This document shows positions 3,090-26,001 of a DNA stretch of 63,939 nucleotides, one piece after another; positions within the stretch are counted from its first letter, which is position 1; every line of letters starts with the position of its first letter. The position numbers and the translations under genes were made by a program. Where the stretch lies: the NCBI GenBank assembly GCA_041288045.1, contig JBGGMM010000167.1:1-63939 (forward strand), in the 5' to 3' direction. Source of the stretch: Pseudobdellovibrionaceae bacterium (GTDB taxonomy: Bacteria; Bdellovibrionota; Bdellovibrionia; Bdellovibrionales; Bdellovibrionaceae). The notes beneath the pieces are model-generated. The model had not been told where the DNA came from, did not search any database, and saw only the letters and a program-made list of their open reading frames with translations.

Positions 3090-3119
3090 TTTTTTAACGA
3101 AAACGAAAGGGTTTTTGTT

Positions 3120-5642: not shown

Positions 5643-5689
5643 TCTCATTCATTTTGTGTTATGGGTGACTTCAAGAACTGAGGTCATCC

Positions 5690-6307: not shown

Positions 6308-6824
6308 AGTGTTCTTGGCAGAGGGTTTCTGTCGGACTTCGGCGGTTGCTTCGGAATGAGCGGTCTAACTTTTTATAGGTGCATTTTTTGACCATGGGGC
6401 CGGTGAGAAGACTGGTCGCTTTGCCTGCGAACCTTTGTTTGACCTCGGCTTTGCATTCGTCTTGAAAATGCGTCCAAAGCGATGAGCAATTATTCTTAGA
6501 GAAAGTATAGCACTGCATTTCAATGCTCGAAGGCGCACAGGGTTCTTGGGCGATTTTCTCTGCCTCAAATCGAGGGACCAGGATCACCCAAAGCACATGA
6601 CCCAAGAGCACCAAGCCGCAGGCAAAGATCAGGCTGTTCTCAAAGGCGACTGGCAAGCCGGCTTTGACGAAAGGTCTTTCCTTGAAAATGAAAATTCCAA
6701 TTCCGAAAAGTCCGACTGGCAGCCAATGCAGAGCAGGAAATGAGGTCCAAGCCGCCAAGAGTTCAAAAACTCCCCAAGAACTGAGGATATAAAGCAGCAG
6801 TTGCACCCAAGTTGGTATTCGCAT
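6276..6824 (-). CDS. Hypothetical membrane protein with a Cys-rich C-terminal domain
   Basis: About three hydrophobic helices in the first ~85 aa, then a soluble domain with several Cys. Its 3' end overlaps mocA convergently by 32 nt. Confidence 0.5.
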   Translation of the reverse strand: MRIPTWVQLLLYILSSWGVFELLAAWTSFPALHWLPVGLFGIGIFIFKERPFVKAGLPVAFENSLIFACGLVLLGHVLWVILVPRFEAEKIAQEPCAPSSIEMQCYTFSKNNCSSLWTHFQDECKAEVKQRFAGKATSLLTGPMVKKCTYKKLDRSFRSNRRSPTETLCQEHFSVLDAPSLD

Positions 6825-6968
6825 TCCTTCATCCTAAGACGAAAAGCTGGCCTCGCCAAGAAGCTTTTTAACGCAATGCCCACGAGAGTGATTCAGAGGC
6901 TTTTCAACTGGCCAGTTTTTCTTCCTTGATGTTAGAAAGGGAAGATTCAATGAATGGGGGAAACCACT

Positions 6969-8552
6969 ATGAAAACAACAGTTTTAGCGTCTTTGGTGAT
7001 GCTCTTGGCTTTGTCTGCTCAAGCTGCAAAAACATTCGTCTACTGTTCGGAAGGAAGTCCCAGCACTTTCAATCCGCAATTGGCAACGGATGGAACCACT
7101 TTCAACGCCAGCTCTCGCGTTGTTTACAACAATTTGGTCGAATTCAAACACGGCTCTACCGAGATTGAACCCGCATTAGCTGAATCTTGGACCATTTCCA
7201 AAGATGGACTGACTTACACCATGAAATTACGCAAAGGTGTGAAATTCCATTCAACGGAAGCTTTCAAACCAACTCGTGATTTCAATGCTGATGACGTTTT
7301 GTTTTCTTTCAATCGCCAGCGCGATCCCGCTAATCCTTACAACAAGGTTTCGGGCGGAAGCTACGAATACTTCCAGGGCATGGACATGGGAAAGGTCATC
7401 AAGAACATCACAAAGAAAGGGGACTACGAAGTCGTTTTCAATCTGACTCAGCGTGAAGCTCCTTTCCTCGCCAATCTTGCCATGGATTTCGCCAGCATCC
7501 TCTCTTCTGAGTACGCCGATGCCATGATGAAAGCGAAGACTCCAGAAAAAGTCGACACACTGCCCGTGGGCACAGGTCCTTTTGTCTTCAAGAGCTATCA
7601 AAAAGACACTCTCATTCGCTACACAGCCAATCCCACTTACTGGAAAGGAACTCCGAAAATTGAGAACTTGGTTTTTTCAATCACTCCGGATCCTTCTGTT
7701 CGCTCTCAAAAACTGAAAGCCGGTGAGTGCAATCTGATCGCTGAGCCAGCTCCTCAAGACATCGATGCGCTGAAAGCCAACAGCAAATTGCAAGTCATGG
7801 AAAAAGAAGGCCTGAATGTCGGCTACTTGGCATTCAACGTTGAAAAAGGACCTTTTGCGAAAAAAGAAGTTCGTGAAGCCATCAACTATGCCTTGAATCG
7901 CAAAGCTTACCTTGAAGCGATTTACATGAATCGAGCGGCTTTGGCGAAAAATCCAATTCCGCCGACTGTTTGGTCTTACAATCAAACGATCAAGGACTAC
8001 GATTACAATCCAACCAAAGCCAAAGAACTTTTGGCAAAAGCTGGATTTCCAAATGGTTTCGAAACTGAAATGTGGACTTTGCCAGTTTCTCGTCCCTACA
8101 ACCCAGCAGGGAAAAAAATGGGTGAGATGATGCAAGCCGATCTGGCGAAAGTCGGAATCAAAGTGAAGCTTGTGACTTACGATTGGCCAACTTACCTTGA
8201 GAAATCCAAAAAAGGTGAGCACCAGATGATCCAAATGGGTTGGACAGGTGACAATGGTGATCCAGACAATTTCTTCAATGTGCTCTTGGGTTGTGCTGCC
8301 ATCGAAGCTGGATCGAATCTCGCTCGTTGGTGCTACAAGCCTTTTAACGATTTGGTTCAACAGGCGAAACAAACGGCTGATACCAAAAAACGAACAGACC
8401 TTTACATGAAAGCTCAAACAATTTTCAAACAGGAAGCTCCTTGGGCGACGCTGGCACATGCTCGTGTTTACCGGGCTATGTCTGCCAATGTCACAGGCTA
8501 TAAGATTCATCCTTTTGGAACTGAGCAATTTGAGACTGTTGATTTGAAGTAA
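6969..8552 (+). CDS. dppA: Dipeptide ABC transporter periplasmic substrate-binding protein
   Basis: Long blocks matching E. coli DppA as I recall it (AKTFVYCSEGSP.TFNPQL, KVSGGSYEYF, APFLANLAMDFASILSSEYADAMMKA, GWTGDNGDPDNFF). Signal peptide. I moved the start to ATG 6969 (GGGGGA 8 nt upstream) rather than the track's 6954. Confidence 0.92.
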   Translation: MKTTVLASLVMLLALSAQAAKTFVYCSEGSPSTFNPQLATDGTTFNASSRVVYNNLVEFKHGSTEIEPALAESWTISKDGLTYTMKLRKGVKFHSTEAFKPTRDFNADDVLFSFNRQRDPANPYNKVSGGSYEYFQGMDMGKVIKNITKKGDYEVVFNLTQREAPFLANLAMDFASILSSEYADAMMKAKTPEKVDTLPVGTGPFVFKSYQKDTLIRYTANPTYWKGTPKIENLVFSITPDPSVRSQKLKAGECNLIAEPAPQDIDALKANSKLQVMEKEGLNVGYLAFNVEKGPFAKKEVREAINYALNRKAYLEAIYMNRAALAKNPIPPTVWSYNQTIKDYDYNPTKAKELLAKAGFPNGFETEMWTLPVSRPYNPAGKKMGEMMQADLAKVGIKVKLVTYDWPTYLEKSKKGEHQMIQMGWTGDNGDPDNFFNVLLGCAAIEAGSNLARWCYKPFNDLVQQAKQTADTKKRTDLYMKAQTIFKQEAPWATLAHARVYRAMSANVTGYKIHPFGTEQFETVDLK

Positions 8553-9565
8553 TGGTCATTGGAATTCTGAAGAAAATTTTATTGGTGATTCCAACATTAA
8601 TTGGGGCAAGCGTGATAGCGTTTGCCCTGATTCGTTTGATTCCTGGTGATCCAGTCACCAATTTATTGGGCGAACGAGGCGGTGATCCTCAAGTGGTCGC
8701 CGAAATGCGAGCCCGTTACGGCTTGGACAAACCAGTCATCACTCAATATTTTCTCTTCATTGGAAATGCTCTTCAAGGAGATATGGGAGAATCCATTATT
8801 TCCAAGCGCCCCGTTTCAGAAGAATTCTGGTCGCGCTTTCCAGCCACTTTAGAATTGGCCTTTTTGGCTTTGTTATGGTCCGTGCTTCTGGGAATCCCCT
8901 TGGGAATTTTAGCAGCAGTGAGGCGTAATTCTTTTTTTGATTACTCGGTGATTGGCGTGTCCCTTATCGGATACTCGATGCCGATTTTTTGGTGGGGCCT
9001 GATCCTGGTGATTTTTTTCTCTGTCAATCTTGGCTGGTTCCCGGTTTCTGGCCGCATGAATGTGATGTACGACGTGACCCCTCACACTGGCTTCATGCTG
9101 ATCGACTCATGGCTCAGTCCAGATGGAGCTGCAGCATTTTGGGATGCTTTGAAACATTTGGTTCTTCCGGCCATCGTGCTTGGGACAATTCCACTGGCAG
9201 TGATGGCTCGTATGACTCGATCCTCTTTGCTCGAAGTTTTAGGCGAAGATTATGTGCGCACGGCAAAAGCCAAAGGACTCGATACCTTTCGAGTGGTTTT
9301 TATTCATGCACTGAGAAATGCGATGATTCCGATTGTGACTGTGATTGGTCTTTTAGTGGGGACCTTGCTGACTGGCGCAGTATTGACCGAGACGATTTTT
9401 TCTTGGCCTGGTATCGGCCGCTGGCTTGTGAAATCGGTGGAAGCTCGTGATTATCCAGTCATTCAAGCTGGTGTTTTGTATTTGGCTTTTTTGATTGTGA
9501 TGGTGAATTTGATTGTGGATCTGGTTTATCTTTGGGTCTATCCGCGAATGAGGTCACAGACATGA
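8552..9565 (+). CDS. dppB: Dipeptide ABC transporter permease
   Basis: BPD-transporter permease pattern with multiple TM helices. TAATG overlap with the dppA stop. Confidence 0.9.
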   Translation: MVIGILKKILLVIPTLIGASVIAFALIRLIPGDPVTNLLGERGGDPQVVAEMRARYGLDKPVITQYFLFIGNALQGDMGESIISKRPVSEEFWSRFPATLELAFLALLWSVLLGIPLGILAAVRRNSFFDYSVIGVSLIGYSMPIFWWGLILVIFFSVNLGWFPVSGRMNVMYDVTPHTGFMLIDSWLSPDGAAAFWDALKHLVLPAIVLGTIPLAVMARMTRSSLLEVLGEDYVRTAKAKGLDTFRVVFIHALRNAMIPIVTVIGLLVGTLLTGAVLTETIFSWPGIGRWLVKSVEARDYPVIQAGVLYLAFLIVMVNLIVDLVYLWVYPRMRSQT

Positions 9566-10413
9566 AAGATTTTTGGTATTTGTTCCGCCAAAATCGGGGT
9601 GCTGTGATGGGCCTTTGCCTGGTTCTGTTGGCCGCCGTGATCGCTCTGCTAGCTCCCCTGATTGCGCCCTTTGAACCCATCACGGTTTTCAACGAGTCTT
9701 TAAAGCTCCCGCCCTTCTGGCATGATGGAGCAAATGGCTCTTATCTGTTAGGAACGGATGATCTGGGCCGAGACCTTTTATCTCGTTTGATTTATGGGTC
9801 TCGAGTTTCATTGGGGATTGGCTTTTTCGTCGTCGTTTTTAATTTGTTCTTTGGTTTGATCTTGGGTCTGACGGCAGGTTCTTTCGGCGGTTGGGTGGAC
9901 ACGGTCATCATGCGATTGATGGACATCATTCTTGCTTTGCCATCGATTCTTTTGGCAATTGTCGTCGTGGCAATTCTGGGCCCTAGCCTGATCAACACAG
10001 TGATCGCTGTTGGAATTGTCACACTTCCCAATGTCGTTCGAGTGGTGCGTGCTTCGATTCTGGTCGAGAAAAAGAAAAACTACGTCGCTGCCTCTAAAAG
10101 CTTCGGCGCTTCATGGTTTCGAATTTACATTTTGAATGTGCTTCCCAATTGTCTGGCGCCACTTTTGGTTCAGGCGAGCTTTGGGTTTAGTGACGGGATT
10201 CTCAATGCAGCAGCTCTCGGTTTTTTGGGCCTCGGTGCGCAGCCTCCAATCCCCGAGTGGGGAACAATGTTGTCAGACGCCAGAGCTTATATTGAATCTG
10301 CGCCCTGGCTCGTGACTTTGCCGGGACTTTGTATCCTTATTGTCGTCATTGCATTTAATTTGTTGGGCGATGGACTTCGGGATGCTTTGGATCCCAAGGT
10401 GAAACGAGCATGA
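9562..10413 (+). CDS. dppC: Dipeptide ABC transporter permease
   Basis: Permease with a conserved N-terminal OppC-type segment. Start trimmed to ATG 9562, which forms an ATGA overlap with the dppB stop (track start 9532 lies inside dppB). Confidence 0.88.
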   Translation: MKDFWYLFRQNRGAVMGLCLVLLAAVIALLAPLIAPFEPITVFNESLKLPPFWHDGANGSYLLGTDDLGRDLLSRLIYGSRVSLGIGFFVVVFNLFFGLILGLTAGSFGGWVDTVIMRLMDIILALPSILLAIVVVAILGPSLINTVIAVGIVTLPNVVRVVRASILVEKKKNYVAASKSFGASWFRIYILNVLPNCLAPLLVQASFGFSDGILNAAALGFLGLGAQPPIPEWGTMLSDARAYIESAPWLVTLPGLCILIVVIAFNLLGDGLRDALDPKVKRA

Positions 10414-11396
10414 GTTTACTGCAGGTCAAAAACCTCAATATTGATTTTAGCACTTCCACCGGAGTGATTCAGGCTCTCCGAGATGTGAACTTTCGTCTCG
10501 AAGAAGGCGAAGCTTTAGGAATAGTCGGCGAATCTGGCTCTGGAAAGAGTGTGACGAGCTTGGCTTTGTTTGATTTGCTTGCCAGCAATTCAATTGTACG
10601 CAGTGGAGAGATTTTTTTCAAAGGCCGGGATATTCGGAAAATGTCTGAAGCTGAAAAATTGAAACTTCGAGGTGCTGACATTTCCATGATCTTTCAAGAT
10701 CCCATGTCGAGCCTCAATCCCTGCTTCACTGTTGAATACCAAATCTCTGAAGTTTTAAAAGTTCATCAAGGTCTGACCGGTGCTTCGGCCCGGGATAAGA
10801 TTCTTGAGCTGCTCAGACAAGTAGGGATTCCGGATCCTCAATCCAGACTTCATGTTTATCCACATGAACTTTCCGGCGGAATGAGCCAACGAGTGATGAT
10901 TGCCATAGCCATCGCCTGTTCTCCAAAAATTCTTATTGCAGATGAGCCCACCACAGCTTTGGATGTGACAATCCAAAAACAAATTCTCTCGCTTTTACAG
11001 AAACTGAGAAAAGAGAAAAAAATGTCTCTTGTTTTGGTTTCACATGATCTCGGAGTCATCGCGCAAAACACGGATCGACTTCTTGTCATGTATGCCGGGG
11101 AGATTGTTGAAGAGGGTGATTCGATGGCGGTGATTCAAAAGCCGACTCACCCATACACTGAGGGGCTTCTTCAGTGCTTGCCTGGATTGCATTCTCATGA
11201 AAGCCGAGATTTTCGTTTACCGACAATTCCAGGGATTGTGCCCAATCTCGGACAACGTCCCTCCGGCTGTCAGCTCAATCCGCGTTGTCCTTATAAGAAA
11301 AAAAACTGTGAAGAAAAGCCGGTGCCGCTTTTTCAGGTCCAAGCCAACCGAGAAGCTCGTTGTCTTTATCCACTGAACGTTGAAAGGAGCCTTTAA
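10410..11396 (+). CDS. dppD: Dipeptide ABC transporter ATP-binding protein
   Basis: Walker A GESGSGKS, signature LSGGMSQR, Walker B ILIADEPTTALD. C-terminal oligopeptide-ABC Cys motif (CQLNPRCPY). Confidence 0.92.
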   Translation: MSLLQVKNLNIDFSTSTGVIQALRDVNFRLEEGEALGIVGESGSGKSVTSLALFDLLASNSIVRSGEIFFKGRDIRKMSEAEKLKLRGADISMIFQDPMSSLNPCFTVEYQISEVLKVHQGLTGASARDKILELLRQVGIPDPQSRLHVYPHELSGGMSQRVMIAIAIACSPKILIADEPTTALDVTIQKQILSLLQKLRKEKKMSLVLVSHDLGVIAQNTDRLLVMYAGEIVEEGDSMAVIQKPTHPYTEGLLQCLPGLHSHESRDFRLPTIPGIVPNLGQRPSGCQLNPRCPYKKKNCEEKPVPLFQVQANREARCLYPLNVERSL

Positions 11397-11767
11397 TGGA
11401 AATTTTCATTCTTACGGTCGCATTGCTTTTTGCAATTCCCAATTTTTCAAGTGCATCTGAAAGTTCCAGCACAAAAGAGCAAATTCAAAAAGATTTCGAA
11501 AAAGGTTACGAAGACCTGAAAGTGCAAATCAAAGAACTGCAGGAAAAAGCCAAGACGAGTTCGGGAAATGCCAAAAAAGAAATGGAAACCCAGCTGGCTA
11601 AATTGGACCAAGAGCAAAAAGAGTTTCAAACTCAAATGCAAAAACTGAAAAAGTCGTCCGGCAAAGCATGGGATGATGTCAAAACTGGTACCGGTGATGC
11701 TTACGAGAGCCTGAAAAAGTCAGTCATTCAAGCCAAGCAGCGCTTTCAGTCCGAGGACAAGAAGTAG
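11396..11767 (+). CDS. Small secreted K/E/Q-rich helical protein embedded in the dpp operon (unknown function)
   Basis: Signal peptide MEIFILTVALLFAIPNFSSA, then about 100 aa of heptad-like charged helix. AGGAG 6 nt upstream. The start shares one nt with the dppD stop (TAATG). The stop shares one nt with the dppF GTG (TAGTG). Confidence 0.65.
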   Translation: MEIFILTVALLFAIPNFSSASESSSTKEQIQKDFEKGYEDLKVQIKELQEKAKTSSGNAKKEMETQLAKLDQEQKEFQTQMQKLKKSSGKAWDDVKTGTGDAYESLKKSVIQAKQRFQSEDKK

Positions 11768-12720
11768 TGTTGGTTGTTGAGAATCTCAAGAAGACTTTCA
11801 AAACTCCGAGAGCTTTCAAAAAACCTCTCGAAGTTCAAGCTTTGCGCGGGGTCAGTCTTAGCGTTGATGCTGGCGAGACTCTGGCCATTGTCGGTGAATC
11901 CGGCTGTGGCAAAAGCACATTGGCGAAAGTGCTTTTGAAAATTGAATCACCTTCATCCGGCCAAGTCACAATTGATGGAAAGGCTTTGGCAGCGATTTCT
12001 CTGAAGGAACTTTCGGATCACATGCAGATGATCTTTCAGGATCCTTATTCGTCGATCAATCCCAGGAAAAAGGTTTTTCAAATCATTTCTGAGCCCTTAA
12101 AAATCAAAGGCGTTTCGACTGAAGAAATCAAAAAATCAGTGGAATCCGTCGCTCAGATGGTGGGCCTTCGACCCGAAATCCTTCGGCGCTATCCCCATAT
12201 GCTCAGCGGCGGCCAGCGACAAAGAGTCGGCATTGCCAGAGCACTTGTCACCAGTCCCCAATTGATTGTCTGTGACGAGCCGGTTTCAGCCTTAGATGTG
12301 TCTGTTCAGGCTCAGGTTCTAAATTTGCTCTTGGACCTCCAAAAGCAAAAGGGTCTCAGTTATCTTTTTATTTCACATGACCTGGGGGTCGTTCGTTTTC
12401 TCGCCCATCGCGTGGGTGTTATGTATCTGGGTCAAATTGTAGAAATTGGTGATCGAGATGCGATTTTTAAGAAACCTCTCCATCCTTACACTCAGCTTCT
12501 TTTAAAGAGCACGCCTTCAATTTCAATAGCTGAAAATTTCAATACGACTGAGGCAACCGAACTTCCTTCACCACTCAATCCGCCTTCTGGTTGCAGTTTT
12601 CACACTCGTTGTCCTTATATGACTGAGCTTTGTCGGGAAAAAACACCGGAACTTCGGGTGTTAATGGGATCTCAAGTCGCCTGTCACCATGCTGAAAAAA
12701 TCGCTGGGGGCCAAGCTTGA
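11767..12720 (+). CDS. dppF: Dipeptide ABC transporter ATP-binding protein
   Basis: Walker A GESGCGKS, signature LSGGQRQR, Walker B LIVCDEPVSALD, C-terminal CSFHTRCPY motif. GTG start. Confidence 0.9.
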   Translation: MLVVENLKKTFKTPRAFKKPLEVQALRGVSLSVDAGETLAIVGESGCGKSTLAKVLLKIESPSSGQVTIDGKALAAISLKELSDHMQMIFQDPYSSINPRKKVFQIISEPLKIKGVSTEEIKKSVESVAQMVGLRPEILRRYPHMLSGGQRQRVGIARALVTSPQLIVCDEPVSALDVSVQAQVLNLLLDLQKQKGLSYLFISHDLGVVRFLAHRVGVMYLGQIVEIGDRDAIFKKPLHPYTQLLLKSTPSISIAENFNTTEATELPSPLNPPSGCSFHTRCPYMTELCREKTPELRVLMGSQVACHHAEKIAGGQA

Positions 12721-13724
12721 AGTTTCAGGTGCCAGAACTGAAATTTTCAAAAACTTTTCCCAAGACCACTGGTTTATCTCCAAAAAGCTCAATTCTCATT
12801 TATGATCAGATTCTTTCAAAAAGTCCAAACGCGAATGCGTGGATTCAAAAATTTCCTTTTCGCTATGCTGTCACGTCTGGTGAAGAACTGAAAGATCTTA
12901 AAAATTTTCCTGCTCATATGGAAAAAATTCTCAATTTGTCTGGTGAAATTTCAGAAAGGCCTCTGCAAATTGTTTGTTTGGGTGGGGGCAGTGTCGGTGA
13001 TTTTTCTGGGTTTTCTGCCAGTGTTCTCAAGCGCGGCGTGGACTTTATTCAAATCCCAAGCACTTGGCTTTCCGCCATTGACTCAGCTCACGGTGGAAAG
13101 ACGGCTTTAAACGTTGGAAACATTAAGAATCAGATTGGCTCTTTTCATTCAGCGAATAAAATTTATCTCATTCGTGAGCTTTTAATATCTCAACCTCAAG
13201 AGCGAATGGATGAAGCACTCGGCGAAGCTTTGAAAATTTCTTTGATTCAGGGAAAGGCGCTCTGGAAAAAGTGGGAGAAAATTCAGGTCTGGAATTCAGA
13301 GAATCTCTGGAAGCTTCTTCCAGACCTGATCAAAGCTAAATATCAAATCGTCAAAAGGGATCCCTGGGAACAAAAAGGTATTCGTCATGTTCTCAATTTC
13401 GGACACACTTTGGGACATGTCTTCGAAGCTGAGCTTGGCCAAGCTCATGGAAAGGCTGTTCTCGAGGGCCTTCGATTTGCGATTTGCTGGAGTGAGAAGA
13501 AGAAAATTTTGAAATCCAAATCTCTTTTGCAATCCCATTTTTTGCCTGAAATTCGAAACTCTCTAAAAAGTCTGCAATCTCCGGAAAAATTTCTTTCTCA
13601 GGATAAAAAGCGCGTCGCAAACGGGAAAATCCGCTTTATTTTTCTTCAATCACCTGGAAAACCCCTGATACAATCAGTGACTGTTTCCGAAGTTCTCGAT
13701 GAGGTAAAAAGGCAAGCGCAATGA
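12717..13724 (+). CDS. aroB: 3-dehydroquinate synthase
   Basis: GGGSVGDFSGF, PSTWLSAIDSAHGGKTALN, NFGHTLGHVFE and HGKAV motifs. TTG start overlapping the dppF stop (TTGA). Confidence 0.85.
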   Translation: MKFQVPELKFSKTFPKTTGLSPKSSILIYDQILSKSPNANAWIQKFPFRYAVTSGEELKDLKNFPAHMEKILNLSGEISERPLQIVCLGGGSVGDFSGFSASVLKRGVDFIQIPSTWLSAIDSAHGGKTALNVGNIKNQIGSFHSANKIYLIRELLISQPQERMDEALGEALKISLIQGKALWKKWEKIQVWNSENLWKLLPDLIKAKYQIVKRDPWEQKGIRHVLNFGHTLGHVFEAELGQAHGKAVLEGLRFAICWSEKKKILKSKSLLQSHFLPEIRNSLKSLQSPEKFLSQDKKRVANGKIRFIFLQSPGKPLIQSVTVSEVLDEVKRQAQ

Positions 13725-14893
13725 AGTCCTTTTCTTTTCAAGGTGAAATTCCGGCTTCGAAATCAATGATGAACAGGGCTTTGTTGCTGCAAAGCTATCA
13801 ACCAGGTCTTCAAATCGTTGGTAACTCCAATTGTGACGATGTTCGACACATGAAATTGGCCTTGGCCGCTTTTATTCAGAAAAAAAATATTCCCTGTGGC
13901 GAAGCCGGGACTGTGATTCGGTTCATGGGAATGCGGGCTTCTCGGGAAAAGGGAACCTTTGCTCTGCTAGGCAGTCCTAGGCTTCTCAGTCGGCCCCAAG
14001 ATGAACTGATTTATATTCTCAATCAACTCTCTGTGAATGTGCAGCTTTTGAATGACCAAATCATCATTCACAGTGAGGGCTGGAAAAAGCCAATGATCCC
14101 CATTCGCGTCCACCGCGAAACTTCTAGTCAATTTGCAACTGCTTTGCTTTTGAACTCTTGGAAACTTCCATTTGATTTAGAATTTGAAATGAAACCCGGT
14201 GTGTCCGAAGGCTATTGGCAAATGAGTGTGGAGCTAGCTCAGAAAGCAGGCCTTGTTGTTCAGAAAAAAGGGGATTTTTGGAAAGTTCCCGCCCAACAGG
14301 AACTGCAGCCCCATCAAATCATGATGGAACCTGATTACAGTTCCGCATTTGCTTTGGCGGCAGCCGGCGCTCTTTGCGGCGAAACAGTCATCACAAATGC
14401 AACTGCTACAAGCTTTCAACCGGATTATATTTTTATCGATTTGCTGAAGAAAATGAACATTCCCGTTGAGCTGAAGGATCAACAATTGAAAGTACGCCAA
14501 GCTCAGGAAATAAAACCATTAGATATCAGTTTGCACTCTTCTCCGGATCTTTTTCCTGTGCTTTCTGTTCTGTGTGCTTTTTCCAAAGGGGAATCCATTC
14601 TCAAGGGTGCTACTCATTTGGCTCATAAAGAGTCTCATCGGGTCGAAAAAACGGCCGAGCTTTTAAGGCTTGCCGGATTTTATGCCAAGCTCAGGCCGGA
14701 TGGACTGCAGATTCAAGGGCAGGGAAAAGGATTTAAGCCTCAAAAGTTCGAATTTGATCCCGATCAGGATCATCGGATGGCGATGGCCGCGGGCATTTTG
14801 AAGCTTCAGGGATTTGATGTCAAAATTCATCAGCCACAAGTGGTGAGCAAAAGTTTTCCTGAATTCTGGCGGGCATTGGGTATTCAGGCATGA
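13721..14893 (+). CDS. aroA: 3-phosphoshikimate 1-carboxyvinyltransferase (EPSP synthase)
   Basis: KSMMNRALLL and GEAGTVIRF motifs, DHRMAMA near the C-terminus. ATGA overlaps on both sides. Short for the family (390 aa). Confidence 0.88.
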   Translation: MKSFSFQGEIPASKSMMNRALLLQSYQPGLQIVGNSNCDDVRHMKLALAAFIQKKNIPCGEAGTVIRFMGMRASREKGTFALLGSPRLLSRPQDELIYILNQLSVNVQLLNDQIIIHSEGWKKPMIPIRVHRETSSQFATALLLNSWKLPFDLEFEMKPGVSEGYWQMSVELAQKAGLVVQKKGDFWKVPAQQELQPHQIMMEPDYSSAFALAAAGALCGETVITNATATSFQPDYIFIDLLKKMNIPVELKDQQLKVRQAQEIKPLDISLHSSPDLFPVLSVLCAFSKGESILKGATHLAHKESHRVEKTAELLRLAGFYAKLRPDGLQIQGQGKGFKPQKFEFDPDQDHRMAMAAGILKLQGFDVKIHQPQVVSKSFPEFWRALGIQA

Positions 14894-16704
14894 AGCTTGT
14901 TTTACTGGGACATCGCGGAACTGGGAAATCCCAGCTTTTAGAAAGACTGAAGACCTATTGGAAGGACAAATCTTCCAATTTGAAATTTTTTGATCTTGAC
15001 CGAGAGATTGAATTTCGTGAAGGCAAAACCATTTCTCAAATTTTCAATGATGCTGGAGAAAAAGATTTTCGCGACCTCGAAGTGAATGTCTTTCATGATC
15101 TGATTCGTGCCAATCCAGAATTTGTCATTTCCATGGGGGCTGGCTTTCCTTTGCAGCACATCCCAGCTGACATTCAACGACTGTGGGTGCGCCGAAAAAC
15201 AGATTTCCTTGGAAGAATTTTTCTCAATCGGCCTCGCCTGAATCCCGAAATGTCACCGCTTGAAGAGTACCTGCAACGGCTTCCACTGCGCGAGGAGCGC
15301 TATCGAAAGCATTCCACAGATGAGTATCTCATGCCTGAGGGAATCGAATCGGCCAATTCAATCGAGGAAAGAATCTTTAAAGAGGACTATCGAAATTTGG
15401 GTGGAGTCCTTACCCTTCTTCCCATTCATTTTCGCAGTCTGGAAAGTCTGCAAAATCGGATTCGCAATTTTGATGTGGATTTTTTTGAGCTTCGGGATGA
15501 TCTCTTAAGCCTTCAACAAATTCAAATGGTTACCAGCCTTCTGCCGCCCAGGCGTGTGCTTTTGAGCTTAAGGTCTGCGAAAACCAACCCGTGGATTCAG
15601 GAGTTCTTACGAACTGGGATTTCTTGGGATTGGGCCCTCGAGCTAGGCGCCTGCCCTTTTGGTGAAGCTCCGATTTTTTCACTGCATCAAGTTCCAAGGG
15701 CAATTCTTCAAAGCAAAGAGAGTTTGGAAACTTTCCTTGCAGAGAAAAAAATCCCGGCCACTTCTCATATCAAATTATCACCCATCATTGAAAGCTTCTC
15801 TGAATTGCAGATTCTTTTAAATTGGCAGAATGAAAACCCATCACAGCGAAGCGTCCTTCCCAGATCTCAGGCCGGGCGCTGGGGCTGGATTCGCCTTTGG
15901 CTGAAAGGCCGGCAAAAAATTAATTTTTTCCGACTCGATCAGGGATCGGCCTTGGATCAGCCAACACTTTTTGAATGGATGAGCACTCCTTTTCAAATCC
16001 AAAATTTCGCAGCTCTTTTAGGCCACCCCGTTTTTCACAGTCGAACTCCGATTGAGCACCAAGCTTATTTTCAAAAAAAAGGATGGCCTGTTTTTGCCAT
16101 TGATATCGAAGAGGAGGAATTTCAAAAGGCCATTGAGCTCTTGTCTTTTTTGGGACTGCAGGCGGCGGCAGTGACTTCCCCTTTAAAGGTCAAAGCTTTT
16201 CAATGGGCTCAAGAGCGATCACCGATTGTGCAAGAGCTTGAAAGTGCCAACACTCTTTTTTTCAAAGACCAGAAATGGTCGGCTCACAACACGGATCTTG
16301 ATGGTTTTCGTTTTTTATTTTCTCAGATCACCGGTGACACACAGTCCTTGGCCGTTTGGGGCGGTGGCGGAACTCTGCCAGTGATCTTAAAAATTGCTCC
16401 CAATGCCATTTTCTTTTCAGCCCGAACAGGGGAGCTGAAACGAGAATATGGGGATCAGCAGAAATGGACTCGGGATCAGATCGTCAGTATGCAAATGGAA
16501 GGACCGCGAATTCTGATCTGGGCCGCTTCACCTGAGGCCCAGCTTCCGCCAGAGGATTGGCGGCCCGAATTTGTGCTGGATTTGAATTACCGCGAAGATT
16601 CCCTGGCCAGAGAGTACGCTCTTCAGGTAAATGCTCAGTATCTGGACGGTCTCGGCATGTTCAAAGAACAGGCGCGAGCACAAAGAGAATTTTGGGATCG
16701 GTGA
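14890..16704 (+). CDS. aroK-aroD-aroE: Trifunctional fusion: shikimate kinase / type I 3-dehydroquinate dehydratase / shikimate 5-dehydrogenase
   Basis: N-terminus: Walker A GHRGTGKS, DLDREIE...GKTISQIF, GEKDFRDLE (AroK). Middle: DFFELRDD, LLSLRSAK, SLHQVP (His), SHIKLSP (Lys), GRWGWIRL (AroD type I landmarks). C-terminus: ALLGHPVFHSRTPIEH, SPLK, NTD.DG, WGGGG (AroE). One uninterrupted 604-codon frame. Confidence 0.8.
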   Translation: MKLVLLGHRGTGKSQLLERLKTYWKDKSSNLKFFDLDREIEFREGKTISQIFNDAGEKDFRDLEVNVFHDLIRANPEFVISMGAGFPLQHIPADIQRLWVRRKTDFLGRIFLNRPRLNPEMSPLEEYLQRLPLREERYRKHSTDEYLMPEGIESANSIEERIFKEDYRNLGGVLTLLPIHFRSLESLQNRIRNFDVDFFELRDDLLSLQQIQMVTSLLPPRRVLLSLRSAKTNPWIQEFLRTGISWDWALELGACPFGEAPIFSLHQVPRAILQSKESLETFLAEKKIPATSHIKLSPIIESFSELQILLNWQNENPSQRSVLPRSQAGRWGWIRLWLKGRQKINFFRLDQGSALDQPTLFEWMSTPFQIQNFAALLGHPVFHSRTPIEHQAYFQKKGWPVFAIDIEEEEFQKAIELLSFLGLQAAAVTSPLKVKAFQWAQERSPIVQELESANTLFFKDQKWSAHNTDLDGFRFLFSQITGDTQSLAVWGGGGTLPVILKIAPNAIFFSARTGELKREYGDQQKWTRDQIVSMQMEGPRILIWAASPEAQLPPEDWRPEFVLDLNYREDSLAREYALQVNAQYLDGLGMFKEQARAQREFWDR

Positions 16705-16705
16705 A

Positions 16706-17749
16706 ATGGCAGCAAATACTTTTGGTCATTACTTTCAAATCCATTCCTTTGGTGAAAGCCATGGGCCAGCTCTAGGCTGCGTGATTGAGGGCTGCCCTGC
16801 GGGTCTAGCATTCGATTTCTCTTTGCTGCAATCAGAACTTCAACGTCGAAGACCTGGCCAGCAGGGTCTGCAGAGCGCAGGAGTGTCGCAGCGCCAAGAA
16901 TCCGATGAAGCCGAAGTGCTCAGCGGTGTTTTCGAAGGCATGACCCTGGGCACTCCAATCGCAATTATTGTTCGCAATCAGGACGCCAAATCACAAGATT
17001 ACCAGCAAATCAGATCCCAAGCACGGGCTGGCCATGCGGATGATGTGTGGGAATCAAAATTTGGGCACCGCGATCATCGCGGCGGCGGCCGCTCATCAGG
17101 ACGTGAAACGATTGCCCGTGTGATGGGCGGCGCAGTTGCTAAAATGCTTCTTCGAAAACTGGCTCCAGAGCTTTGCATTTTTGGCTTCTCGACTCAAATT
17201 GGCCCTTTGACTTTAACGTCAGAAGAAAAAATTGATTTTCTTTCAGGATCGAATTTCTCAAAATCCCCTCAGGATTCTTTTTTTGCCAGATTCCCAAGCT
17301 CAAGAGACCAGGATGTTCGCGAGCTTTTGCAGAAAGCACAAGAAACGGGTGAAAGCTACGGAGCTCGAGTGGAAATCCGAGTCAAAGGCATGGTCCCGAA
17401 CCTAGGCCAACCGGTTTTTCATAAATTAAAATCAGATTTGGCAAAAGCCCTGATGAGTGTCGGCGCGGTCTCAGCATTTCAAATTGGTGAAGGAGCTCCT
17501 GAATTGGAAAAGGGCACTGATTTTCATCAAAACGAAAGCTCGGTCTATGGCGGCATTCGTGGTGGAATTTCAACAGGCGAAGAGCTCATTCTGCAGGCGA
17601 GTCTCAAACCCACAAGCTCGATTTTGGACATCGCTAAAAAAGGCCGTCATGACCCTTGCATAGCAACTCGGGCCATTCCTGTCCTTGAATCCATGGTGGC
17701 CTTGGTTTTAGCAGATCATCTGCTTTTAAAGCGGTTGGATCAGATTTAA
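16706..17749 (+). CDS. aroC: Chorismate synthase
   Basis: FGESHGPALGCVIEGCPAG, RRRPGQ, HRDHRGGGRSSGRET motifs. Start trimmed to ATG 16706, 1 nt after the upstream stop (track start 16631 lies inside the fusion gene). Confidence 0.93.
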   Translation: MAANTFGHYFQIHSFGESHGPALGCVIEGCPAGLAFDFSLLQSELQRRRPGQQGLQSAGVSQRQESDEAEVLSGVFEGMTLGTPIAIIVRNQDAKSQDYQQIRSQARAGHADDVWESKFGHRDHRGGGRSSGRETIARVMGGAVAKMLLRKLAPELCIFGFSTQIGPLTLTSEEKIDFLSGSNFSKSPQDSFFARFPSSRDQDVRELLQKAQETGESYGARVEIRVKGMVPNLGQPVFHKLKSDLAKALMSVGAVSAFQIGEGAPELEKGTDFHQNESSVYGGIRGGISTGEELILQASLKPTSSILDIAKKGRHDPCIATRAIPVLESMVALVLADHLLLKRLDQI

Positions 17750-17751
17750 AA

Positions 17752-18648
17752 TTATTTTTTATCCTGATCCTGGTTTTTTTCATCTTTCGGATCTTTTCGA
17801 AGATCTCGAAGGCCGACTTCAGAAATGTCGTGGTCCTTAAACCAATTCATCAGATCGACGAAATAATGACGGTACCAATCGTCAACGGCTGAAAGGTTAA
17901 GCCCCAGTTGAACTCGGTCATATTTAGCCATGTTCACAGAGAATTTAGATGGAGTCGTGATGTACACTCGCAAATTATCATAACCTTTGTTTTGCGGGTA
18001 AAAGTAGTAAACCCACTCTCTGAGTTCCATGAGGATATTGGCGTAATTGTCGATCACCATCCATTTGCCATTCGTGGTGCGAACGATTGTTGCCACATGA
18101 AAGGCCCAGTTTGTGCCACCAGCACTCATAGGTCCCACCAACCAAACTTTACGGATGGACTCTTTCATAATGCCCATTTTCAAAAGAACTAAATGAGCAT
18201 AAGTGGCGCGCCCAAAGCAGTAGCCAATTTCCGTGGTTTCACGGTCGTATTTTTCATTCTGTGAATAAGCGACAACCGGATGAATATTCATGGATTCAAT
18301 GATTTTTTGTGCATTTACTGGGTCAATTGCTGGTAATCGGTAGCGACCTTGAGGATGAGGAGTCTGTGCTTGAACAGGAAGCGCATAGACTTGATCAATT
18401 GCCTTCTCATTCATTTCCTTAAGACGAGCTGGACTGTATTTGTGAGCCTCATTCCATTGCATCGCCAAAAGGTCAGCATGTAAAAGTGGATCAACAGGTT
18501 CTGGCTCTTGTGGTTCTACCTCTGGTGTCTGAGTTGTTGGTGTCGTAGGTGCTGGAGTTGAATCAGATTCTTTCAGATCGGCTTTGGGACCGCAGTTTGT
18601 CAGAACCATACTCAAAACAAGAAGCAGGAAAAATTTTGTAAAATTCAT
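17752..18648 (-). CDS. Secreted lipoprotein with a possible transglutaminase-like Cys-His-Asp core
   Basis: Lipobox LTNCG and a P/T/E-rich linker. Ordered GYCFGRA (Cys) ... WAFHVATIV (His) ... WMVIDN (Asp), resembling the transglutaminase/papain-like triad order. The function is inference. Confidence 0.55.
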   Translation of the reverse strand: MNFTKFFLLLVLSMVLTNCGPKADLKESDSTPAPTTPTTQTPEVEPQEPEPVDPLLHADLLAMQWNEAHKYSPARLKEMNEKAIDQVYALPVQAQTPHPQGRYRLPAIDPVNAQKIIESMNIHPVVAYSQNEKYDRETTEIGYCFGRATYAHLVLLKMGIMKESIRKVWLVGPMSAGGTNWAFHVATIVRTTNGKWMVIDNYANILMELREWVYYFYPQNKGYDNLRVYITTPSKFSVNMAKYDRVQLGLNLSAVDDWYRHYFVDLMNWFKDHDISEVGLRDLRKDPKDEKNQDQDKK

Positions 18649-18812
18649 GATATCTCCGAAACTTTTGATGATAGGACTTATTCAGTAGCAAGAATCCGTC
18701 CAAAATTTGAGATCTCAACTCAACTAAAATAGCTGTAGAAAAGAAAGAGTGGGAAATATTTTTAGGGTCATCTGTGAACGAAGCCAATTTGGAACTGACG
18801 AGGAAAATGTTT

Positions 18813-19703
18813 TCAGGTTTTATTAAGCCAATCAGAAAGGGCAACAAAGGCCCTCTCTTTTCCTAGCTCATTGAAGGACTCGTGGAAAAACCCGGGGAAG
18901 CTGGTTAAAACTTTTTTCTTTCCCTCTTTCATTTGCAGTTGCTTGAAAAACTGCAAGCAGGCCTTCCAGCTGACGATCTGATCGGCCAACGGGACAATCA
19001 CAAAAAGATTGTAAGCAAAGGGTCCCGAATTGTTTCGGGTTAAAGGCATTTCCTTCATCATGCTGACAAAAAACCGTGGAGTGACAAAATTGTGGTTCAA
19101 TTGATTTCCATGATAAGCCTTGGCCACTTCGGGATCATGAGAGATCAAATCTCCATTGAGCTCATTGCTCAATTTCAAAGATCCCAAAAGAGGCTCTACA
19201 AGCTCTCCAAAAAGACGTTTGAGCTTTGGAACCGGTAATGCCAAGTCCAAAAGTGGCGCTGACACCGTGACAGATTGCAAAGGCAAATTTGATTCTTTCA
19301 AAAGAGCGCGAAGAGTGATGAGACCACCGAGACTGTGCCCAAACCAATGGGCTTGCACAGAAGCATTCGAATTTTGTTTCATCCATTCAAAGGCCGCTTG
19401 AAAGCCATTCAAAACAGCTGTTGAATATTCGTCAAAATTTTCAATGTGCCCACGAACACCCAAAGACTTTCCATGTCCTGGCAGATCGACACAAATCACT
19501 GCATCGACGACACCTTGTAAGTAATGGGGAAAATGCTCGTAACGATCACTTTGCTCTGCCTGTCCATGGACAAGATAGAGAAAGCGTCCTTGGCTTAAAT
19601 CAGCTGAGCGATAAATTCGAAGAGAAATCGTCTTATTGGCAATGTCGATAAATTCGGTGGTCCAACCTGAAGGCAGCTTCGGAAAAAACGGAGAAGCCGC
19701 CAT
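18813..19703 (-). CDS. Alpha/beta hydrolase (lysophospholipase/monoacylglycerol-lipase-like)
   Basis: HG oxyanion motif (LYLVHGQAEQS) and nucleophile elbow GHSLGG. 296 aa. Confidence 0.8.
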   Translation of the reverse strand: MAASPFFPKLPSGWTTEFIDIANKTISLRIYRSADLSQGRFLYLVHGQAEQSDRYEHFPHYLQGVVDAVICVDLPGHGKSLGVRGHIENFDEYSTAVLNGFQAAFEWMKQNSNASVQAHWFGHSLGGLITLRALLKESNLPLQSVTVSAPLLDLALPVPKLKRLFGELVEPLLGSLKLSNELNGDLISHDPEVAKAYHGNQLNHNFVTPRFFVSMMKEMPLTRNNSGPFAYNLFVIVPLADQIVSWKACLQFFKQLQMKEGKKKVLTSFPGFFHESFNELGKERAFVALSDWLNKT

Positions 19704-19705
19704 TT

Positions 19706-20419
19706 CTATTTCTGGCCGTGGTAAATATAGGCCACGCCACCAGTCAGAGAATGAAAAGACATTTTAGAAAATGAATCTGACTTTTGCATCAGCGACAGAA
19801 AGTCCTGCTTGCAAGGAAAGGCAGCTGAAGATTTTTGCAAATACTGATAGGCATCCTTTTGCCCCGTCACCCAGCCACCCACCAATGGCAAAACTTTTTC
19901 GGAATAAAAATTAAAAAGAGGTGCAAACACAGGAAGATCCGCCTGACCAAATTCCAGAACCAAAACGGAGCCACCTGACTTTGTCACTCTGGCCATTTCT
20001 TTCAGTGCTTTGACGGGATCTGCGACATTTCGAATACCAAAAGAAATGCTCACCAAATCAAACTGAGCATCCGGATAGGGCAGATTCATCACATCTGCGG
20101 TTTCAAAAGTGATTTGTAAATTCTGGCTTTGAGCTTTGGCAGGAGCCGGGACCAGCATTTCTTGGCAGAAATCCGTACCCGTGACTTGGCCTGATGAACC
20201 GACGGCTTTTTTAAATTCAATTGCCAAATCACCAGTGCCGGTAGCGCAATCGAGAACTTTCATTCCCTCTCGGGCGCCTGAAAGTTTCACTAGTTTTTTT
20301 CTCCACAAATGATGAATCCCCATAGAAAGAACCGAATTGGCTCGGTCGTAATTTGATGCCACTTTGGCAAACATGGATCTGATTTTTTCTGGTTGGGGCG
20401 AATGCTTTTCAGGAGTCAT
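19706..20419 (-). CDS. ubiE: Demethylmenaquinone/ubiquinone C-methyltransferase
   Basis: YDRANSVLSMGIHHLWR and VLDCATGTGD SAM motifs. UbiE/MenG family length. Confidence 0.9.
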   Translation of the reverse strand: MTPEKHSPQPEKIRSMFAKVASNYDRANSVLSMGIHHLWRKKLVKLSGAREGMKVLDCATGTGDLAIEFKKAVGSSGQVTGTDFCQEMLVPAPAKAQSQNLQITFETADVMNLPYPDAQFDLVSISFGIRNVADPVKALKEMARVTKSGGSVLVLEFGQADLPVFAPLFNFYSEKVLPLVGGWVTGQKDAYQYLQKSSAAFPCKQDFLSLMQKSDSFSKMSFHSLTGGVAYIYHGQK

Positions 20420-21283
20420 TTAATTTTCCAATTGATTCAAAGGACGATCCAAAGCCTGCAGAACCCTCTCAAGCTTTTTCATCAAATTCTGAAAATCAGG
20501 AATGGTCAGGGCTTGAGGCCCATCCGAAAGAGCTTCGGCTGGACGAGGATGGACTTCAACAATAATTCCATCAGCGCCCGCAGCTGCCGCCGCCAATGCC
20601 AATTGTGGAACGAATTGCCGAACACCAATGGCATGTGAAGGATCCACAATCACTGGAAAGTGGGTCTTTTCTTTCACATAAATCACAGAATTCAAATCCA
20701 AAGTGTTTCGAGTCGAAGTTTCAAAAGTGCGAATGCCTCTTTCACACAAAACCACTTGATCATTGCCACCAATCGAAATGTATTCGGCAGCTTTGATCCA
20801 CTCGTCAACAAAAGCGGCAAACCCGCGCTTGAGCATCACAGGTTTTTTAGTCAAGCCCAGCTCTTTGAGAAGCGCATAGTTGTGCATATTTCGAGAGCCC
20901 ACTTGGTACATTTCAACGTAATCGTCCAAAAGGGCAATTTGACGAGGATCAGTGACTTCGCTGACCAATTTCATTTTTGTCTGATTGAGAATGTCTTTAA
21001 TAAACGCAAAAGCTTCATTGCCAAGGCCTTGAAAAGTCTGCGCGCTAGTTCGAAGTTTCCAAACCCCACCACGCAGAATCACAGCTCCTGCTGCTTTGAC
21101 GGCTCGGGCTGTCTCTTCGAATTGAGATTTGCTTTCAATTGAGCAGGGTCCCGCAATCACCGTGAATTCAGGTCCGCCAATAATGACAGAGCCCACCTGA
21201 ACAGGCTTTGTTATTTTCACTTGAGCCGACGGCGCGGCCCTGTGAGGATTCACAAGTGTATCCGTATCCACAGAAATTTTCAT
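20420..21283 (-). CDS. 3-deoxy-7-phosphoheptulonate (DAHP) synthase, class I-beta (KDO8PS-like)
   Basis: [27 protein letters not shown] and VDPSH motifs. The stop abuts the ubiE start. Confidence 0.85.
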
Positions 21284-21398
21284 ATCGGTTTGAGTCCACT
21301 TCCGCTATAAAAAGCAAGAGAACCTTTATACCACCAAAATCCCGTAGGGAAACGGAAAGAAGTGGTGAGAGGTTTCACTGTGTAAGAAGGCAAGGTCT

Positions 21399-22448
21399 AT
21401 GACGCAGGCAGAAATTAAATCCTTTCTCAAATCAGGCGCTTTGATCCGCCTCCCCTCTGGAAAGCTTCGTCTTTGGATGGGCCCATTTAAAGCTTGTGAG
21501 CCTGGAAAAGAGCAAGTCTTTTCAATAGCTTGCATGGAGTTTTTTGGCGGTCAGCCCGAATTTTTCGAAAGCTCTCAGCCAGTGATCGAAACTGAAGTTT
21601 CCACTCTAAGAGCTCTTCTGCAAGAACAGATCACTGAAGCTCCCTTGGCAGCCTCTAGCTTTTTTCAGCCGTCTTTTGAAAAATTTCAGGAATCCTTTCA
21701 AACCATTCAAGGGAAAATTCATCGCGGGGAAATCGAGAAGGCTTTGCCTGTGGTTTTCGCAGAATGCCCAGTGATTCCAAGCCCCAGTCAGAGAGCCAGC
21801 ATGTTGGCTCAGGCATTAGAAGCTCATCCCCAGCTCTATGTTTTTGGATTCTGGAATGAAGCTTCTGGGATTTTGGGAGCCACTCCGGAAATTCTATTTC
21901 ATTTGAAAGGCAAATCTCTCAAGACCATGGCGCTTGCGGGAACTCATCCGCGAGCTGAAGAAAAAGACCTGCTTCGAAATCCCAAAGAGCTCAAAGAGCA
22001 TCAATTGGTTGTTCAGGATCTCAAAGAGAAGCTGGAAAAATTAGGTTGGGTCAAAATTGGTGAAACCCATGTCGCTGAATATGGGATTCTTTCGCACCTT
22101 AAAACCGATATCGAAGTTGAAATTTCAGATGTGTCGATCCAAGAACTGCTCAAGCGGTTACATCCGACAGCCGCTTTGGGGGTTTACCCTCGAAACTACG
22201 GCATTCAGTGGATGAAAGCACTTCCCTATCAAGAGCAACGCGGCCTTTTTGGTGGTCCGGTGGTTTTTCCAATTTCAAGAACTGAGTCTTTGGCCTTAGT
22301 CGCAATTCGCTGCCTGCAGTGGAATGAAAACGGCTCACAGATCGGTACCGGTTGCGGGATTGTTGAAGCCAGTGATTTGCATCGCGAATGGAAAGAATTG
22401 GCCCTCAAGCGAGAATCCGTGATGAAGGTCTTGGGACTTTCAATATGA
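21399..22448 (+). CDS. menF: Isochorismate synthase
   Basis: Chorismate-binding C-terminal motifs (LHPTAALGVYP, GLFGGPV, GCGIV). Followed by menD-menH with ATGA overlaps. Confidence 0.82.
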   Translation: MTQAEIKSFLKSGALIRLPSGKLRLWMGPFKACEPGKEQVFSIACMEFFGGQPEFFESSQPVIETEVSTLRALLQEQITEAPLAASSFFQPSFEKFQESFQTIQGKIHRGEIEKALPVVFAECPVIPSPSQRASMLAQALEAHPQLYVFGFWNEASGILGATPEILFHLKGKSLKTMALAGTHPRAEEKDLLRNPKELKEHQLVVQDLKEKLEKLGWVKIGETHVAEYGILSHLKTDIEVEISDVSIQELLKRLHPTAALGVYPRNYGIQWMKALPYQEQRGLFGGPVVFPISRTESLALVAIRCLQWNENGSQIGTGCGIVEASDLHREWKELALKRESVMKVLGLSI

Positions 22449-25967: not shown

Positions 25968-26001
25968 AAGGCCCCCGCCACAGTGGTGGTTATAGCATGG
26001 T

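Follow-up and report, generated by a model that had tools for sequence, protein, structure and literature searches.

A putative trifunctional shikimate kinase, type I dehydroquinase and shikimate dehydrogenase from Bdellovibrio-type bacteria with the domain order of AROM

A putative trifunctional enzyme of the shikimate pathway

A stretch of 63,939 nucleotides from a Pseudobdellovibrionaceae bacterium (contig JBGGMM010000167.1), below called the window, contains the shikimate-pathway genes aroB and aroA, an open reading frame (ORF) of 604 codons and aroC, which follow one another on the + strand between 12717 and 17749, as an earlier note made from the sequence alone had described and as the ORF list and the Pfam matches confirm. 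The product of the long ORF (14890..16704, + strand, 604 aa), which we call KDE for aroK-aroD-aroE, is very probably a trifunctional enzyme that combines shikimate kinase (SK), a type I 3-dehydroquinate dehydratase (dehydroquinase, DHQase) and shikimate dehydrogenase (SDH), in a fusion that is convergent with the order of these domains in the eukaryotic AROM protein. Judged from sequence and predicted fold, it is also quite likely that all three domains are catalytically active. The AroK-AroD-AroE triple fusion that the note had proposed is thus supported for the outer domains by the Pfam families SKI and Shikimate_dh_N and for the middle domain by profile, fold and active site.

The kinase domain, which would catalyze step 5 of the pathway, occupies the N-terminus (14890..15369, residues 1 to ~160). 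Residues 27-105 matched Pfam SKI (PF01202) with 55 bits against a cut-off of 22.1 bits (E-value 1.4e-14), and the solved SK structure 2pt5 of the Protein Data Bank (PDB) aligned with residues 2-143. The Walker A motif GHRGTGKS, the DLD, FRDLE and GAG motifs and the lid motif NRPRL are all present. Among 242 family members, to which all conservation values in this text refer, the residues of these motifs are 97-100% conserved, with R116 at 87%, and the residues G7, G10, G12, K13, D37, R61, E64 and R114 reach 98-100%.

The C-terminal SDH domain (16003..16704, residues ~372-604; step 4) matched Pfam Shikimate_dh_N (PF08501) with 42.6 bits against a cut-off of 27 bits (7e-11) and, over residues 374-602, the NCBIfam model TIGR00507. 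In the PDB, the sequence of 1nvt matched (5.9e-14), and the modeled KDE structure matched solved AroE folds with template-modelling (TM) scores of 0.65-0.71 when normalized to the target. The motifs HSRTP, TSPLK (with K433), NT, NTD (with D469), the NADP loop WGGGG and Q594 are in place; their residues are at least 97% conserved except for T386 (68%, S/T), and K433, D469 and Q594 are kept in at least 99.6% of the members.

The AlphaFold2 model of the whole chain had a predicted local distance difference test (pLDDT) score of 93.8 and a predicted TM score (pTM) of 0.92. The mean pairwise identity within the family was 0.42 for SK, 0.37 for the DHQase and 0.43 for SDH. All landmarks that had been listed for the three domains, which are GHRGTGKS, DFFELRDD, LLSLRSAK, SLHQVP, HIKLSP and GHPVFHSRTPIEH, were found in the translation.

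The middle domain as a diverged type I dehydroquinase

The segment between the kinase and the dehydrogenase (15397..15999, residues ~170-370; step 3) is, according to sequence profiles and the predicted fold, apparently a strongly diverged type I dehydroquinase. A profile built from the middle domains of 25 diverse members matched the solved type I DHQases of Streptococcus pyogenes (2ocz, E-value 3.9e-4) and S. mutans (3l9c, 8e-3), and the alignment paired the motifs ELRDD with EWRAD, SLR with TLR, SLH with SYH, and KLA with KIA. The full-length family profile ran in one stretch through both domains of the Arabidopsis DHQ-SDH structure 2gpt. The AlphaFold2 model of the isolated middle domain (pLDDT 94.6, pTM 0.90) contained eight strands, and its top 23 fold matches in the PDB were without exception type I DHQases (probability 1.00, TM 0.58-0.66, E-values down to 8e-6), including the enzymes of Salmonella and Clostridioides difficile, an archaeal enzyme and an AROM domain, while the next ranks were unrelated barrels with lower scores.

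The active site could be assigned residue by residue with hhalign and hmmsearch. As a reference we used an E. coli AroD sequence that we take to be correct and whose numbering reproduces the published active-site positions. E200, R202, R228, H266, K295, R335, F346, S353 and Q357 of KDE pair with E46, R48, R82, H143, K170, R213, F225, S232 and Q236 of AroD, respectively. Conservation at these positions is 97-100%, except for S353 with 81%.

Several observations weigh against a trifunctional enzyme. Neither DHquinase_I (PF01487) in Pfam nor the aroD models of NCBIfam matched the 604-residue protein at E ≤ 0.1, which is why residues ~160-374 were examined separately, and PF01487 was also absent from the precomputed Pfam annotation of those homologues that were listed. 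Support for the DHQase at the level of sequence is modest, the best E-value being the 3.9e-4 mentioned above, and on inspection of the alignment Glu86 of enterobacterial AroD had no conserved counterpart in KDE, being the one canonical residue of this kind. In the SDH part, no match to the Pfam NADP-domain models was found, and the 86.8 bits of TIGR00507 are below the equivalog cut-off of 200.2 bits. The neighboring genes show the same tendency, with AroB at 215 bits against the 305-bit cut-off of TIGR01357 and AroA at 227 bits against the 287-bit cut-off of TIGR01356. The Pfam scan proposed in the earlier note therefore recovered SKI and Shikimate_dh_N and left DHquinase_I and the NADP-domain models unmatched. 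As regards the missing DHquinase_I match, which the note had named as an argument against the fusion, the match is indeed absent, but this is outweighed by the fold search, by the profile match in register and by the 97-100% conserved active site.

As a DHQase can lose its function inside a fusion, the middle domain could in principle be a dead scaffold or pseudo-enzyme, with the dehydroquinase activity coming from a separate gene. There is a precedent for this in Candida albicans Aro1, whose DHQase domain is inactive and has lost the Lys/His dyad (PMC9074039). The failure of every curated dehydroquinase model in Pfam and NCBIfam to recognize the domain would agree with such a loss, as would the barrel of ~215 residues in comparison to ~250 residues in canonical AroD. 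However, the Schiff-base lysine and the catalytic histidine are kept in 99.6% of the 242 members and E200, R202, R228, R335 and Q357 in 100%, and it is exactly the dyad lost in C. albicans that KDE retains. We therefore regard a dead domain as improbable. The diverged dehydroquinase of KDE would presumably be the only one of the cell.

The most conserved part of the DHQase is a Trp-rich block with the pattern RSxLPRSxxGRWxWxRLWLKGRQKINF (window 15850-15960, residues ~320-357), in which W333, R335 and Q342 are invariant. This block is specific to the family, stands where the canonical segment ...SMG..G.ISR...FGS... would be expected, and may serve as a domain interface.

Distribution of the family and gene order

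A word-indexed search returned 559 relatives of KDE, and the best 120 of these were nearly all full-length proteins of 560-650 residues. An exhaustive search with the middle-domain profile gave 492 clusters (at 50% identity) with E ≤ 1e-3, 461 of them with E ≤ 1e-10. The best 150 clusters all belonged to the fusion family, with the domain at positions ~160-380 of a protein of ~600 residues or deeper in a longer one, and no non-fused dehydroquinase was found among these 150 as the nearest relative.

Related loci were collected by full-length alignment in a species-representative genome set. Eighty loci were retained, all of which encode a full-length KDE, and nearly all of them are labeled Bdellovibrio, Pseudobdellovibrio or Bdellovibrionales. 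Among them are closed chromosomes of Bdellovibrio bacteriovorus as well as several Bdellovibrio species and Pseudobdellovibrio; NZ_CP102930.1, CP168971.1 and NZ_CP178619.1 are examples of closed genomes with the fusion. Going by these sequences, the KDE fusion is apparently an old and conserved trait of Bdellovibrio-type predatory bacteria. A few metagenome-assembled genomes (MAGs) with KDE carry other labels, namely Planctomycetota, Myxococcales and Streptomyces, the latter being a Streptomyces griseus MAG with a full-length KDE (locus L008). The G+C content of the related loci ranged from 29% to 74%, with 74% in L051 (labeled Planctomycetota), 65% in L077 and L023, and 29-57% in the other loci. 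The atypical labels and G+C values could be due to mis-binning, mislabeling or a wider distribution.

Synteny was analyzed by tblastn of the window proteins against 81 loci. The order aroB-aroA-KDE-aroC recurred in 52 of these, and in most of the remaining loci this order was truncated where the contig ended. Deviating orders were seen in about eight loci, for example aroA-aroC-aroB-KDE in three cases and aroB-KDE-aroC-aroA in one.

In a few lineages, aroA has been fused to KDE as well. Four protein clusters of 975-992 residues (P0118, P0212, P0237 and P0245) contain a Pfam EPSP_synthase domain, that is, the synthase of 5-enolpyruvylshikimate 3-phosphate (EPSPS), in front of SK-DHQase-SDH. Three of these four, each from an independent assembly, are flanked by aroB and aroC (L031, with P0118 at 1987-4923; L081, with P0245 at 5001-7976; and a contig of the Joint Genome Institute), and 2 of the 81 loci carry the aroA-KDE fusion. 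In P0118, the C-terminus of EPSPS enters the first strand of the kinase with essentially no linker. When the relations among the 242 sequences were analyzed by identity matrices and the unweighted pair group method with arithmetic mean, the four-domain clusters were mutually only 37-43% identical, except for P0118 and P0212 with 65%, and their nearest neighbors included three-domain proteins. The low mutual identity, together with these neighbors, makes several independent origins of the four-domain fusion plausible. Fusions of aroB with aroA or of KDE with aroC were not found in the 81 loci, and the four-domain proteins would need one more fusion to become an AROM-like chain. An apparent fusion of 1014 codons in L051 was rejected, as in this 74% G+C sequence the upstream frame was out of frame with aroA and encoded Arg/Pro/Ala-rich nonsense.

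Relation to AROM

The genes and domains of the window, read as 3-dehydroquinate synthase (DHQS), EPSPS, SK, DHQase and SDH, are colinear with AROM, so that the claimed identity of the unit order aroB, aroA, K-D-E with the AROM domain order holds on the evidence of the ORFs, the Pfam matches and the analysis of the middle domain. AROM, or Aro1, of fungi and protists (6hqv, 7u5s, 7tbv) shares with the cluster the five activities, their linear order and the covalent fusion of SK, DHQase and SDH. The five domains do not reside on one chain, however, because stop codons part aroB, aroA and KDE. In contrast to AROM, DHQS and EPSPS are encoded by separate genes here, EPSPS being fused only in the four known clusters, the host is a bacterium, and the KDE DHQase is far more diverged than that of AROM and escapes Pfam. 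The predicted geometry between the domains differs as well.

The origin of this likeness was addressed by ranking scores, and a ranking is a weaker basis for the convergent reading than phylogenetic trees. For all five domains, bacterial or archaeal enzymes scored better than AROM in this ranking: 117 versus 79 bits for AroB, 113 versus 60 bits for AroA, 39 versus at most 35 bits for SK and 55 versus at most 31 bits for SDH, while for the DHQase the fold E-value was 8e-6 with a bacterial enzyme and 1.7e-3 with AROM. Among the NCBIfam models, the bacterial TIGR00507 reached 86.8 bits with the SDH domain and the AROM-specific TIGR01809 only 46.9 bits. In three dimensions, the predicted KDE monomer aligned with 6hqv, 7tbv and 7u5s with TM scores of only 0.29-0.32 and a root-mean-square deviation (rmsd) of ~19 Å over ~710 columns, indicating that the domains are arranged differently from those of AROM.

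A shared ancestry of both systems could have come about if a B-A-K-D-E operon was the source from which AROM was fused stepwise, or if an AROM gene was transferred to bacteria and then split. This idea is attractive, as the common order is not the order of the reactions (it runs 2-6-5-3-4). It also agrees with the natural EPSPS-SK-DHQase-SDH fusions, which demonstrate that the operon can fuse in the direction of AROM, and with the whole-chain fold search, in which the SK-DHQase-SDH regions of AROM came first, because all three domains occur there in the same order, and in which plant DHQ-SDH was also among the best matches of KDE. However, the better scores of the bacterial and archaeal enzymes in every domain, the dissimilar arrangement of the predicted domains and the other gene orders found within the clade all speak against a common origin. 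By our own rough estimate, this order would arise by chance with a frequency of ~1/24 to ~1/72, which is not extreme, because there are many bacterial lineages and the case was picked for its match. We therefore consider shared ancestry improbable, and the same holds for an ancient common ancestor that was masked by fast evolution. It is equally doubtful, or slightly more so, that aroB-aroA-aroKDE preserves a prokaryotic precursor state of an AROM gene acquired from a relative of these predators; if it did, the four-domain proteins would be a living penultimate step, and rapid divergence on both sides would have wiped out the signal of the individual domains.

The AROM-like order is best explained by convergence, that is, by what appears to be an independent fusion of neighboring, overlapping genes, and the best reading of the KDE cluster is that of a lineage-specific, convergent analogue of AROM. 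Of the two wordings that the earlier note had offered, a "bacterial intermediate" is not supported, given the higher scores of bacterial and archaeal enzymes in all five domains, the TM scores of ~0.3 and the variable order within the clade, whereas "analogue" is defensible. As it stands, the cluster is not evidence on the origin of AROM.

Comparison with other shikimate fusions

Proteins with several shikimate enzymes on one chain are already well known from AROM, from the DHQ-SDH proteins of plants and chlamydiae, and from AroK-AroB. The DHQ-SDH proteins of plants (2gpt, 2o7s, 6bmb) and the chlamydial AroDE type (NF006802) resemble KDE in that a type I DHQase stands N-terminal to SDH on one chain. 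The DHQase-SDH pair of the KDE model superposed on Arabidopsis DHQ-SDH with TM scores of 0.57 and 0.68 and an rmsd of 5 Å. For 2gpt, 6bmb and 2o7s together, TM scores were 0.56-0.58 when normalized to the query and 0.66-0.69 when normalized to the target, with an rmsd of ~5 Å over ~490-500 columns, suggesting that the relative orientation of both domains is similar in KDE and the plant enzyme. In contrast to the plant and chlamydial proteins, KDE has an additional N-terminal shikimate kinase and a much more divergent DHQase. The equivalog model NF006802 for the bifunctional protein gave only 53.3 bits against a cut-off of 598 bits, and the SDH half alone aligned.

The monofunctional bacterial enzymes AroK, AroD (type I) and AroE have the same folds and catalytic residues as KDE, which differs from them by the fusion itself and by domains that are all shortened and divergent. 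In comparison to monofunctional AroD, the DHQase of ~215 residues has the Trp-rich block and lacks a conserved equivalent of Glu86. Pairwise fusions of shikimate-pathway enzymes are common in bacteria, as exemplified by AroK-AroB, AroA-Cmk and TyrA-AroA (NF010556, NF008816 and NF011381), but these have two domains and other partners, whereas three and four domains are joined here. Bacterial multi-domain EPSPS proteins usually have two domains according to a published survey (PMC9394408).

Our searches of the full-text literature turned up neither a bacterial SK-DHQase-SDH chain nor its extension to four domains, nor any account of the cryptic DHQase subfamily or the Bdellovibrio cluster. The genes themselves have been in public databases for years, mostly under names that do not mention the dehydroquinase step of these predators (usually "shikimate kinase", otherwise "shikimate synthase" or "hypothetical protein"), so that this step is hidden there, and in an IMG record the three activities are already given by one pipeline.

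Proposed pathway and implications

In the proposed pathway, the 7-phosphate of 3-deoxy-D-arabino-heptulosonate (DAHP) would be made by DAHP synthase and converted to 3-dehydroquinate by AroB. The central domain of KDE would then form 3-dehydroshikimate, with Lys295 as the Schiff base and His266 as the acid/base catalyst, the C-terminal NADPH-dependent SDH would reduce it to shikimate with the help of K433 and D469, and the N-terminal SK would use ATP to produce shikimate 3-phosphate. KDE would thus carry out three steps, from dehydroquinate to shikimate 3-phosphate, on one chain. AroA would add the enolpyruvate moiety, and AroC would yield chorismate; in the few lineages with the additional fusion, the AroA step would reside on the same EPSPS-SK-DHQase-SDH chain. 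The fusion would presumably bring benefits of stoichiometry or proximity, and the plant-like manner in which DHQase and SDH face each other in the model would be compatible with a proximity effect.

As standard hidden Markov models miss the DHQase, automated reconstructions probably report a gap in the chorismate synthesis of these bacteria, and the reported gap would probably extend to the branches that lead to menaquinone, folate and the aromatic amino acids. With KDE, a large and diverse bacterial family is at hand in which the genes would have been fused repeatedly in AROM order, with three and then four domains. This makes it a tractable natural model in which to study why the order arises again and again and whether kinetics, stoichiometry or stability profit from fusion. 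The unusually diverged and compact DHQase of ~215 residues could reveal what the barrel can do without.

Gene junctions and the assignment to biosynthesis

aroB (12717..13724, + strand, 335 aa, TTG start) encodes the putative DHQS of step 2, with matches to Pfam DHQ_synthase (7e-28) and DHQS_C (5e-21) and best PDB matches to bacterial DHQS. aroA (13721..14893, + strand, 390 aa) encodes the putative EPSPS of step 6, with a match to Pfam EPSP_synthase (8e-54) and best PDB matches to bacterial class I EPSPS. Its product is short and reads CGEAGTVIRFMG at the position of the class I glyphosate-site motif, which we take to be LGNAGTAMRPL; the four-domain protein P0118 reads LGEGGTSLRFF at this position. 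aroC (16706..17749, + strand) encodes the putative chorismate synthase of step 7, with matches to Pfam Chorismate_synt (9e-98) and, above the cut-off, to NCBIfam NF003793 (328 bits). AroB, AroA and the AroE domain are below their NCBIfam equivalog cut-offs, and AroC and DAHP synthase are above theirs; by this measure, the mid-pathway enzymes are apparently diverged much more than those at both ends of the pathway.

The junctions, read directly from the sequence, are the overlaps of four nucleotides or the gap of one nucleotide that had been described. aroA is flanked by an ATGA overlap at either end (caATGAag with aroB and gcATGAag with KDE), and in ggTGAaATGgc the KDE stop codon TGA is separated by one base from the aroC ATG at 16706. 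The longest mechanically determined ORF for aroC opens further upstream at 16631, but 16706 is almost certainly the true start, because in the long ORF the Pfam match opens at residue 35 and because aroC of the relatives starts 6-20 nucleotides after KDE. The overlapping junctions indicate a probable translational coupling within the aro cluster, in which the four-base overlaps would fix the stoichiometry and the fusion would be the limit of the same trend.

Upstream, the TTG start of aroB overlaps the stop codon of an ABC (ATP-binding cassette) ATPase gene by four nucleotides (cTTGAag), and the aro genes may therefore not form a free-standing operon. Co-transcription of the upstream gene with the aro cluster is possible in view of this stop/start overlap. 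Scans of window positions 6200-21500 for promoters and terminators showed no excess of sites over shuffled sequence, and no Rfam family and no riboswitch signal above background were found there; the operon boundaries were thus placed by gene spacing.

Type I dehydroquinases and dehydrogenases of the YdiB type form a pairing that is seen in catabolic settings, and the DHQase-SDH part of KDE might accordingly serve the catabolism of quinate or shikimate. This is very unlikely, as this part is fused to a shikimate kinase, the gene lies between aroA and aroC with overlapping or nearly abutting junctions, among the NCBIfam models the biosynthetic aroE matches best and precedes those for quinate/shikimate dehydrogenase, and genes for DAHP synthase and menaquinone synthesis adjoin. 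That separate aroK, aroD and aroE genes were joined into the long ORF by an assembly error or by a frameshift, the latter a concern raised in the earlier note, can practically be dismissed, as full-length homologues of 560-650 residues occur independently in their hundreds, some of them on closed chromosomes, and as the KDE model forms a single confident fold.

Neighboring genes

A type I-beta DAHP synthase for step 1 is encoded downstream on the opposite strand (20420..21283, - strand; Pfam DAHP_synth_1 2e-69; NF006421 with 382 bits, above the cut-off). As it lies only 2.7 kb from the aro cluster, all seven steps to chorismate are encoded together within ~8.6 kb. It is accompanied by a ubiE/menG-like methyltransferase gene (19706-20419, - strand; Pfam Ubie_methyltran), and this pair is often found downstream and on the opposite strand in the relatives as well. 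An isochorismate-synthase-like gene (21399-22448; Pfam Chorismate_bind), a menD-like gene for a thiamine-pyrophosphate enzyme (22388-23986; Pfam TPP_enzyme_N) and a menH-like hydrolase gene (23932-24720; Pfam Abhydrolase) follow on the + strand. From domains and gene order, the region 19706-24720 would represent the menaquinone branch that is fed by chorismate, suggesting that menaquinone is a main outlet of the pathway. No menB, menC, menE or menA follows the menH-like gene, where genes for trypsin-like proteases come next.

The upstream ATPase gene (11767..12720, + strand; Pfam ABC_tran and oligo_HPY) closes an ABC transporter operon of the Opp/Dpp type (6954-12720) that encodes a binding protein, two permeases and two ATPases, and the adjacency of oppF and aroB recurs in three related loci (L005, L009 and L020). 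Between the two ATPase genes, an ORF of 123 codons (11396-11767) encodes a Lys/Glu-rich protein with a signal-peptide-like N-terminus and a weak match to DUF2852. On the other side, a gene for a 298-residue protein (17752-18648, - strand) converges on aroC, with the stop codons only two nucleotides apart. Its N-terminus resembles that of lipoproteins and is accompanied by a Pro/Thr/Glu-rich linker. The protein gave only a weak, sub-threshold match to Gln_deamidase_2 (E-value 4e-4), and tblastn at E ≤ 1e-8 detected it in none of the 80 related loci. Further downstream, the region 25128-40035 is rich in genes of the secreted-hydrolase type, with two trypsin-like proteases, three alpha/beta hydrolases, an esterase of the polyhydroxybutyrate (PHB)-depolymerase type and a subtilase of 1063 residues with a PA domain, alongside an adenosine deaminase and a transketolase-like protein, a gene content that is consistent with the genome of a predatory, Bdellovibrio-like bacterium.

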